A stretch of DNA of 64,000 nucleotides from Escherichia coli (GTDB lineage Bacteria; Pseudomonadota; Gammaproteobacteria; Enterobacterales; Enterobacteriaceae). Location: the NCBI RefSeq assembly GCF_016903815.1, contig NZ_CP069973.1; one strand, given 5' to 3'. Below are positions 1 through 6,253 of this stretch, one piece after another; the stretch's first letter is position 1; each line of letters begins with the position of its first letter. The position numbers and the translations under genes are program-made. Under the pieces are notes generated by a model that ran no database searches, was not told the origin of the DNA, and saw only the letters and a program-made list of their open reading frames with translations.

Positions 1-331
1 ATGAGGGCGATGTATTACCACCTTCACACCCAAATCCAGAAAATACATGAGACGTTGTAAGTTGCTCTCCTGTTTTTATTTCATTACTAGTGACCTGAAA
101 TGCTGCGGCCTGCGCAGAAAATGTTATGAATGCCAATACACTTGAAACGATAAGTTTTTTCATAAAAACCTCATTGTTGTGACCTATCGTTATTTTATTT
201 GATGTGCCTTGATCTCATTATGCATAAAGGCGCAATGATCGCGCAAATGCAATCATAATTATAAAGGTGCCCCGAACATTAGCCATAATATGCACAAATC
301 AGATTCCTGTTATCTCAAGGATAATTATTTT

Positions 332-664
332 TTAATGCGGTGCACTTCGTGACAACAAGTTAATGACTAACACACCGGCACAAATCAACATCATGCCTAT
401 GATAGCTGGCAGGTCCAGTCGTTGACCAAAAAATCCCCAGGAAAGCAAACTAATCAGAACGATACCGACGCCTGACCAGATAGCATAAGCAATCCCTGTA
501 GGTATATAAGCCAGCGTCTGAGCTAATAACCAGAATGATGCACAATAGCAAATAATTGTGCCAACAGAGGGCCATAACCGTGTAAACCCCTCTGAAAACT
601 TCATTAAGGTTGTACCAATGACCTCTGCAAGTATTGCGCCACCAAGATAAATATAAGGGTTCAT
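332..664 (-). CDS. emrE: SMR-family multidrug efflux protein EmrE-like (110 aa)
   Basis: Translation MNPYIYLGGAILAEVIGTTLMKFSEGF... matches EmrE almost residue for residue from memory, including the essential Glu14 motif. AGGAAA RBS precedes the ATG at 664. The ORF-track extension to 844 lacks RBS support. Confidence 0.8.
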   Translation of the reverse strand: MNPYIYLGGAILAEVIGTTLMKFSEGFTRLWPSVGTIICYCASFWLLAQTLAYIPTGIAYAIWSGVGIVLISLLSWGFFGQRLDLPAIIGMMLICAGVLVINLLSRSAPH

Positions 665-1007
665 AGCATATTCTTTCCTGTTCATACTGGAGAGAATTGT
701 ACTACAGTTTGAACACAACTCACCGTTTTCATCCTGGTGTATGTGTATCCAGGGGGCTCTGGCGTGGCAAGAGATAAAGGCAGGAACAATAATGATCAGA
801 AGGAACCCCAGGCTAACGAATGAGTTCACTCTTCCTGGGAGCAAAGCGAAGACAAAACATGTTATCGCGTTTACGGATCGTGGATGGCAGAAAACTTTCA
901 GGATCAGGTATCCATTTTAAACCAGAAATTGAGTGAGTTTGCCCCATCCATGCCCCACGCTGTGGGACCGGATATAATAAACAAGCATAGTCAACAGGTT
1001 ACAAAAC

Positions 1008-1322
1008 CTACACCTGCATGGACATCACTTCCTGATACGCCGCCACCAGCTTATTACGCACCTGAATCCCCATTTGCATAGAAACTGAGGCTTTTTGCAT
1101 ATCGGTCATCACATCGTTTAGCGCCACGCCGGGCTCACCGAGGGTGAATTTTTCTGCCTGCGTGCGGGCGGCTGTTTGTGTATCGCTTATGCGATCGAGC
1201 GCGGCGTGCAGCTGCCCGGCAAAACTAATTGTCGGTTGCGGCAGTGATTCCTGCGCACGCGCACTCATCGCCGTGGTCTGTAACTGGCTGATAACCCCTT
1301 CAATCCCCTGTATCGCTGACAT
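1008..1322 (-). CDS. fliE: flagellar hook-basal body complex protein FliE (104 aa)
   Basis: [24 protein letters not shown]... matches FliE. Divergent from fliF as in the canonical locus. Confidence 0.95.
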
Positions 1323-6235: not shown

Positions 6236-6253
6236 CCCAGGAGATAACGGCAG

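Follow-up and report, generated by a model that had tools for sequence, protein, structure and literature searches.

In textbooks, the home of emrE is the defective prophage DLP12. The gene also lies directly after ren in at least 11 isolated lambdoid phages, including 4A7, Lambda_4C10, 1W, 3W, Perceval, PhiR47_2 and Turner, and ybcL-ybcM are found in three. To our knowledge, many lambdoid phages, lambda among them, have no emrE. In its fixed position in viable phages and its dispensability, emrE resembles a moron (cargo gene), and two natural lambda phages of E. coli from the infant gut have been described with emrE among their accessory genes (PMC6969025). The order of genes in the phage PhiR34_1 is O, P, Ren, EmrE, YbcK, YbcL, YbcM, YbcN, NinE, YbcO, RusA, YlcG, Q, porin, S, R, Rz; this phage may have acquired DLP12 DNA in the laboratory, its YbcL being identical to that of K-12 and its propagation having been on MG1655, and it is weaker evidence for natural carriage for that reason. 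A defective lambdoid prophage with morons at an attachment site formed by the 3' end of a gene is a well-known kind of feature. Full-text searches on an emrE-ybcL-fliE linkage, a fliE integration site and the phage IdasGreatGrand gave no description of the arrangement reported here.

The DNA examined here is a stretch of 64,000 nucleotides from E. coli (contig NZ_CP069973.1), hereafter called the window. Its positions 1-1027 very probably belong to an old DLP12-like lambdoid prophage that has undergone several deletions, and represent its integrase-proximal end (Table 1). The first-pass annotation had proposed a prophage remnant carrying emrE at a fliE-proximal integration hotspot, and this proposal is borne out by two integrase fragments, an att core, the order of the genes, the varied inserts at the same site in other strains and the complete prophage found there in UTAK-1. 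Many complete genomes, that of strain 7/2 among them, match positions 1-1400 with 100% identity, and the window as a whole is at least 99.98% identical to this strain, with few bases differing over the 63.4 kb compared.

Table 1. Features at the fliE-proximal end of the window and their positions.
Feature	Position	Strand	Description
ybcL, 5' part	1-163	minus	first 54 codons including the signal peptide; gene continues past the window start
ybcL-emrE intergenic spacer	164-331		K-12 DLP12 has an extra 2.08 kb between bases 318 and 323
emrE	332-664	minus	SMR proton/drug antiporter, 110 aa, intact, Glu14 present
emrE upstream region shared with lambdoid phages	665-740	minus	76 bp: ren-emrE spacer and last 9 bp of ren
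Integrase pseudogene, internal fragment	757-866	plus	about aa 239-277 of the IdasGreatGrand integrase (434 aa)
Integrase C-terminal fragment (K-12 'intG' remnant)	862-990	plus	about aa 387-433 and stop codon
att core region (attL)	986-1027		42 bp: int stop codon, 18-bp spacer, last six codons and stop of fliE (1008-1027)
fliE, flagellar hook-basal body gene	1008-1322	minus	96.5-98.4% identical across the strains compared; 3' end is the attachment site
fliF	starts 1537	plus

The emrE product is indeed the 110-aa EmrE named in the first-pass annotation. It matches the NCBIfam profile NF042984 'SMR_efflux_EmrE' over residues 1-110 of 110 with a score of 240.5 bits, above the curated cut-off of 226 bits, and it shares 108 of its 110 residues with the crystallised K-12 EmrE (PDB 3b5d) in an ungapped alignment. 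Both changes relative to K-12, I100V and T108A, are conservative and lie near the C-terminus. Like the proteins in the EmrE structures (PDB 3b5d, 7mh6 and others), in which about 110 aa form four TM helices and Glu14 is embedded in the membrane, the window protein has 110 aa and Glu14, the E being found at position 14 of the product MNPYIYLGGAILAE. Because of this near-identity (98%) to a characterised protein, the window EmrE should act as it does in K-12, as an antiparallel homodimer with Glu14-based proton exchange, and its substrates should be quaternary cations (ethidium, methyl viologen, benzalkonium) together with betaine and choline. The end coordinate first given for the feature, 844, has to be abandoned: it belongs only to the ORF 332..844 (TTG start, 170 aa), which we rejected as an artefactual extension of emrE running through the integrase fragment, the true start being the ATG that ends at 664. 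Since fliE is encoded on the same strand, emrE lies 343 bp downstream of it, in keeping with the earlier statement that the two genes adjoin here, unlike in K-12.

At the DNA level, emrE is 91.9% identical to its K-12 counterpart, from which it differs by 25 synonymous and 2 non-synonymous changes (dS 0.40, dN/dS 0.02). Pairing the genes of the window's strain with their DLP12 copies in the same way gave 22 synonymous and 6 non-synonymous differences for ybcL (dS 0.19, dN/dS 0.076), and 46 and 24, respectively, for ybcM (dS 0.33, dN/dS 0.12). Judging from these ratios, all three genes are under purifying selection and have been kept functional. The synonymous divergence of the cargo genes far exceeds that of the core genes next to them (98% identity between strains for fliF), and the GC content is 37-46% across positions 1-1000 of the window, compared to 50-59% in the fli genes. 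The combination of dS values of 0.19-0.40 with dN/dS values of 0.02-0.12 relative to the DLP12 copies argues for an old, separate and selected copy; the fliE-linked and DLP12 loci would thus represent independent, old acquisitions from related phages.

The first 331 bases of the window had been read as an AT-rich region upstream of emrE without an ORF of 60 aa or more. The base composition was correctly described (37-39% GC in bases 1-400); the region is, however, located 3' of emrE and it is not empty, as it contains the beginning of ybcL. This gene is absent from the ORF list because it runs off the start of the window; it was identified through the RefSeq annotation of a genome that is identical over positions 1-1400, and its translation was compared with K-12 YbcL. 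YbcL is a periplasmic Raf-kinase-inhibitor-like (PEBP) protein, and the whole ybcL gene of the window's strain is 94.9% identical in DNA sequence to that of DLP12. Lau et al. reportedly found in 2012 that a single YbcL residue, at mature position 78, decides the suppression of neutrophil migration. With about 21 aa in the signal peptide, mature position 78 would correspond to residue 99 of the YbcL precursor, which differs between alleles beyond the window start: it is V in K-12, T in ATCC 25922 (L006 6053-6604) and A in the strain of the window (strain 7/2 locus L001 19612-20163). If the two positions are the same, the A allele would be a third, uncharacterised variant.

The spacer between ybcL and emrE is shorter than in DLP12. 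The window sequence up to base 318 aligns to the DLP12 locus (L003) up to 8739, and that from base 323 onward to L003 6655 onward (blastn, strain 7/2 versus DLP12). The 2.08-kb segment with ylcJ and ybcK, the latter encoding a putative large recombinase (L003 6656-8738), is present in DLP12 and PhiR34_1 and absent from the fliE-linked copy, in which 318 and 323 are joined cleanly. One possibility is that ybcK is an element that inserts itself within the cargo region.

On the other side of emrE, the homology to DLP12 takes in the 76 bp upstream of the gene (positions 323-740, 91.6% identity) and reaches L003 6240, close to the end of renD fragment 2 at 6248. The segment at 665-740 also lies under the adjoining Ren and EmrE annotations of phages 4A7, Lambda_4C10, Perceval and others. 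This phage-derived segment probably contains the emrE promoter, and presumably also its ribosome-binding site. A consensus scan of positions 1-1600, in which the number of hits was not above the shuffled expectation, gave no match to the sigma-70 consensus on the minus strand between 665 and 800; throughout the fliE-emrE spacer, this strand had neither a promoter-like nor a terminator-like site. Folding the RNA of the fliE-emrE spacer likewise revealed no convincing terminator (z = -1.45). Since the prophage has replaced the natural 3' flank of fliE and no terminator-like structure was found, read-through from fliE can be envisaged, but we consider it unlikely that the FlhDC-dependent class-2 promoter of fliE also drives part of the transcription of emrE-ybcL-ybcM. 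If it did, the flagellar regulon would be coupled to cation efflux and to the neutrophil-modulating YbcL in about half of E. coli, and K-12 would be without this link. An Rfam scan of the same 1600 bases yielded Ysr206 alone, with 18 bits against a gathering score of 124, and this hit was dismissed as sub-threshold.

The DNA between the ren remnant and fliE is derived from an integrase gene. When the intG peptide was compared with the proteins of phage genomes, the matches were integrases, that of IdasGreatGrand (PP925829) being the best. The C-terminal fragment has 37 of 47 residues identical to this integrase (tblastn, E 8e-21), and positions 862-1027 are 96.4% identical to the 3' end of the IdasGreatGrand int gene and the sequence just beyond it (blastn). 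Homology to K-12 starts at window position 861, within the annotated intG, and the preceding bases, 741-860, have no counterpart at either K-12 locus (blastn versus K-12). This seemingly unique stretch of 120 bp is a further piece of integrase pseudogene, since it matches IdasGreatGrand int at positions 757-866, with 74% identity over 116 nt in blastn (E 1e-16) and 40% over 68 aa in tblastn (E 9e-10). Integrase codons 278-386 have been lost between the two fragments, both of which point at fliE, and the joint left by the deletion that brought int next to the ren/emrE segment is located between 741 and 757. In many genomes, PGAP labels the C-terminal fragment 'integrase, partial'. The contrast with K-12 drawn at the outset therefore needs a correction: emrE does lie in DLP12 in that strain, and an intG pseudogene does lie beside its fliE gene, but the same intG remnant is also present here, at 862-990.

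The integrase fragments abut a phage attachment site. All 42 bases of the att core are found in the attP region of IdasGreatGrand (L009 20170-20211, by pattern search), and the homology between phage and chromosome ends at position 1027, 20 bp inside fliE. In phages with an integrase of the IdasGreatGrand type, the attP region thus includes a copy of the 20 bp with which fliE ends, and this would let them integrate at the 3' end of fliE without inactivating the gene; as they bring its last six codons and stop codon with them, fliE would be regenerated upon integration. We found no second copy of the att core (attR), with up to 8 mismatches allowed, in three emrE-bearing loci (strains 7/2, ATCC 25922 and PCP07083). 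These loci thus give no outer boundary for the original prophage, and the remnant, lacking both phage functions and a second att copy, cannot excise. The lack of attR fits a locked-in remnant that has lost its outer end by deletion.

The 3' end of fliE is evidently an attachment site that is still in use, and the interval between yedK and fliE behaves as an integration hotspot. We saw six alleles of this interval among the strains compared: nearly empty in EC17GD31; yedL, yedN and intG' in K-12; GNAT/espR3 and GNAT'/espR4 modules in O157; an IS1 allele; IS605 and the cassette in PCP07083; and the porin and the cassette in ATCC 25922. In O157:H7, two int C-terminal fragments (L004 7043-7182 and 9001-9123) each follow a GNAT/LRR-effector module (espR3, espR4), as if elements carrying effectors had integrated in tandem at the att site of fliE. 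Full-length xis-int genes lie beside fliE in six of 5426 complete E. coli genomes, one of which, UTAK-1, was inspected. Here, a complete P22-like prophage of 38.7 kb is located between fliE and the old int' remnant, which has been displaced to the far end, and the prophage is flanked by the repeated att core at both ends. The old attL thus evidently still serves as attB.

The att-proximal int fragment (862-1007 in the window; also in L002, L004, L005, L006 and L007) falls into two allele classes, the first about 96% identical to IdasGreatGrand and having an 11-bp segment ACAAGCATAGT, the second about 88% identical and without this segment. The two classes, and with them the 11-bp indel near the int stop codon, are discordant with the presence of emrE (PCP07083 versus EC17GD31), which suggests gene conversion by visiting phages. 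This bears on the question of whether the K-12-type and window-type alleles descend from one decayed prophage or from independent integrations of related phages at fliE. Independent integrations would account for the different left breakpoints of int' (about 30 bp of additional int sequence remain in K-12, EC17GD31 and O157) and for the fact that the C-terminal int' fragment of the window is only 88% identical to that of K-12 and 96% identical to that of the phage, when fliE and fliF show 96.5% and 98.2% identity, respectively; the site is, moreover, demonstrably re-used. On the other hand, int' class and emrE presence are discordant, and recombination after a single integration can give the same pattern. 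We regard separate integrations as quite possible, though short of probable; they would alter the history of the locus but leave the kind of feature unchanged. Visiting phages are likely to have acted here through repeated integration or gene conversion, and the history of the locus is blurred by later recombination or repeated phage visits.

The layout seen in the window is widespread. Among 5426 complete E. coli genomes, 3692 have emrE somewhere, and 2619 have the emrE/int'/fliE junction (window 560-1100, at least 80% covered, 95-100% identity), including ATCC 25922, MNCRE44, the window's own type and one O111:H8 strain. The K-12-type ren-emrE-ylcJ context was found in 1395 genomes; as the two context counts together exceed 3692, at least about 320 genomes must have emrE in both. 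The junction is absent from K-12 derivatives, O157:H7 and O121:H19, and in all genomes lacking it, homology breaks at window position 861/862, usually with an annotated partial integrase. Most E. coli genomes with emrE thus have it at the fliE-linked site, and K-12 is atypical, contrary to the rarity that the first-pass annotation had implied. With close to half of the genomes surveyed carrying it, the arrangement is common, as a core arrangement would be, but it is absent from many genomes and has phage remnants on its flanks.

Such a distribution could also be expected if emrE-ybcL-ybcM were an ancestral chromosomal cluster beside fliE that was captured by lambdoid phages and lost in other strains: this is the commonest location of emrE (2619 of the 3692 emrE-positive genomes), distant lineages share one joint and all three genes are under purifying selection. 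An ancestral cluster would not, however, be expected to have integrase fragments and a phage att core on its fliE side, to have the final 9 bp of phage ren ahead of it, to be followed in ATCC 25922 by part of quuD and a porin of the phage type in the order found in phages, or to have a GC content of 37-46%. About half of the genomes are, in addition, without the cluster and have other inserts at the 861/862 breakpoint. We therefore consider an ancestral cluster highly unlikely, and an old prophage remnant remains our preferred explanation.

The region beyond the window start is also consistent with a prophage remnant. The neighbourhood in strain 7/2 reads yedF, yedK (truncated), an HTH fragment, an IS200/IS605 tnpA, ybcM, ybcL, emrE, int' and fliE, with int' directed toward the att site and emrE-ybcL-ybcM on the opposite strand, the same order and orientation as in DLP12 and PhiR34_1. 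A longer remnant is found in ATCC 25922 (phylogroup B2), in which yedK is intact and is followed by an nmpC-like porin gene, a quuD 3' fragment, ybcM, ybcL, emrE, int' and fliE; this remnant is collinear with DLP12 and PhiR34_1. In strain 7/2, a 100-bp quuD 3' fragment, 83% identical to DLP12, lies to the left of ybcM and outside the window (L001 18490-18588). It overlaps the 3' end of the annotated IS200/IS605 tnpA CDS, which encodes 174 aa compared to the 152 aa of the IS200C transposase in the same record, and this annotated CDS may run into flanking prophage DNA.

The IS200/IS605 copy beside ybcM raises the possibility that the cassette was delivered recently by an IS-mediated event, rather than being an old remnant. 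Strain 7/2 has tnpA and a truncated yedK just beyond ybcM, and PCP07083 carries an IS605 element on the same side. In ATCC 25922, however, the emrE-ybcL-ybcM-int' structure recurs with 99.06% identity, yedK is intact and there is no IS, and the int'-emrE joint is common to 2619 genomes with up to 5% divergence. Delivery by an IS is hardly credible in the light of these observations; since the structure exists in ATCC 25922 without an IS, the IS must be a later arrival, which accounts for no more than the loss of the porin gene and of the 3' end of yedK.

Under the preferred explanation, that of a decayed DLP12-like prophage, the prophage would have lost the segment from the middle of int to the end of ren, which would include the xis, recombination, immunity and replication genes, as well as the greater part of the nin-Q region and all that lay past the porin gene. 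The survivors would be cargo: emrE, ybcL and ybcM, plus the NmpC-like porin in some lineages. In the window lineage, an IS200-associated deletion would then have taken the porin gene and the end of yedK; this deletion is considered secondary because the window lineage is 99.06% identical to ATCC 25922 from the quuD fragment onward.

Elsewhere in the window, the IS200C copy (about 700 bp) found between yodD and yedP in strain 7/2 is absent (at about 13541). At about 20760-22700, coordinates obtained by shifting the annotation of strain 7/2 to the window, an IS1 is flanked by a yedJ-like HD-domain gene and by hchA, both of them truncated, which indicates an IS1-associated deletion. According to the same annotation, a yersiniabactin High-Pathogenicity Island is located beside a tRNA-Asn gene at about 29780-60000; it contains a frameshifted integrase, ybtS-X-Q-P, ybtA, irp2, irp1, ybtU-T-E and fyuA, and is followed by inverse-autotransporter pseudogene fragments.

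The layout described here is present and annotated in thousands of public genomes and will be unsurprising to specialists. It nevertheless makes the K-12 map a misleading guide to emrE, since most carriers have a fixed, non-mobile remnant with ybcL and ybcM on the fliE side. This affects the label given to emrE in resistance-gene surveys (mobile/phage-borne versus chromosomally fixed), the reading of YbcL alleles in uropathogenic strains and strain engineering near the fli operons. The locus also offers a clean example of prophage domestication, in which all phage functions have gone and three cargo genes are under purifying selection, and it documents the 3' end of fliE as what is evidently a live attachment site.

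Three known systems each resemble part of this locus. The cryptic prophage PR-G of K-12, with its intG pseudogene, occupies the same site and has the same int C-terminal fragment and att core abutting fliE. It keeps only this fragment of int, followed by yedN (an LRR effector pseudogene) and yedL, whereas the window adds the internal int fragment and then the emrE-ybcL-ybcM cargo. IdasGreatGrand, a complete phage, and the UTAK-1 prophage share the int C-terminus and the att core, with 96-100% identity to window positions 862-1027. Beyond int and att, the sole other similarity found to IdasGreatGrand is a weak one (76%) of about 160 bp to the segment just beyond ybcM; no match to emrE, ybcL or ybcM was reported in this phage, and none of the three is annotated in the 31-kb part of it that was inspected or in the UTAK-1 prophage.

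DLP12 has the same order and orientation of cargo genes as the window and the same 76 bp upstream of emrE, and it too is defective and does not excise. Its attachment site is tRNA-argU, whereas that of the window remnant is the 3' end of fliE, and a tblastn search with its integrase, IntD, gave no significant match in the emrE-fliE locus, the two integrases being of unrelated types. Because of the unmatched IntD and the use of fliE rather than argU, the window remnant can be called DLP12-like only in its cargo and in the order of its late region. It is also far more reduced than DLP12, having no lysis, packaging or nin genes, and it is without the ylcJ-ybcK segment. The DNA identity between the two ranges from 89.7 to 91.9% and, since it is only about 90-92%, the fliE-linked copy of emrE would be both separate from, and older than, the one for which DLP12 is known.
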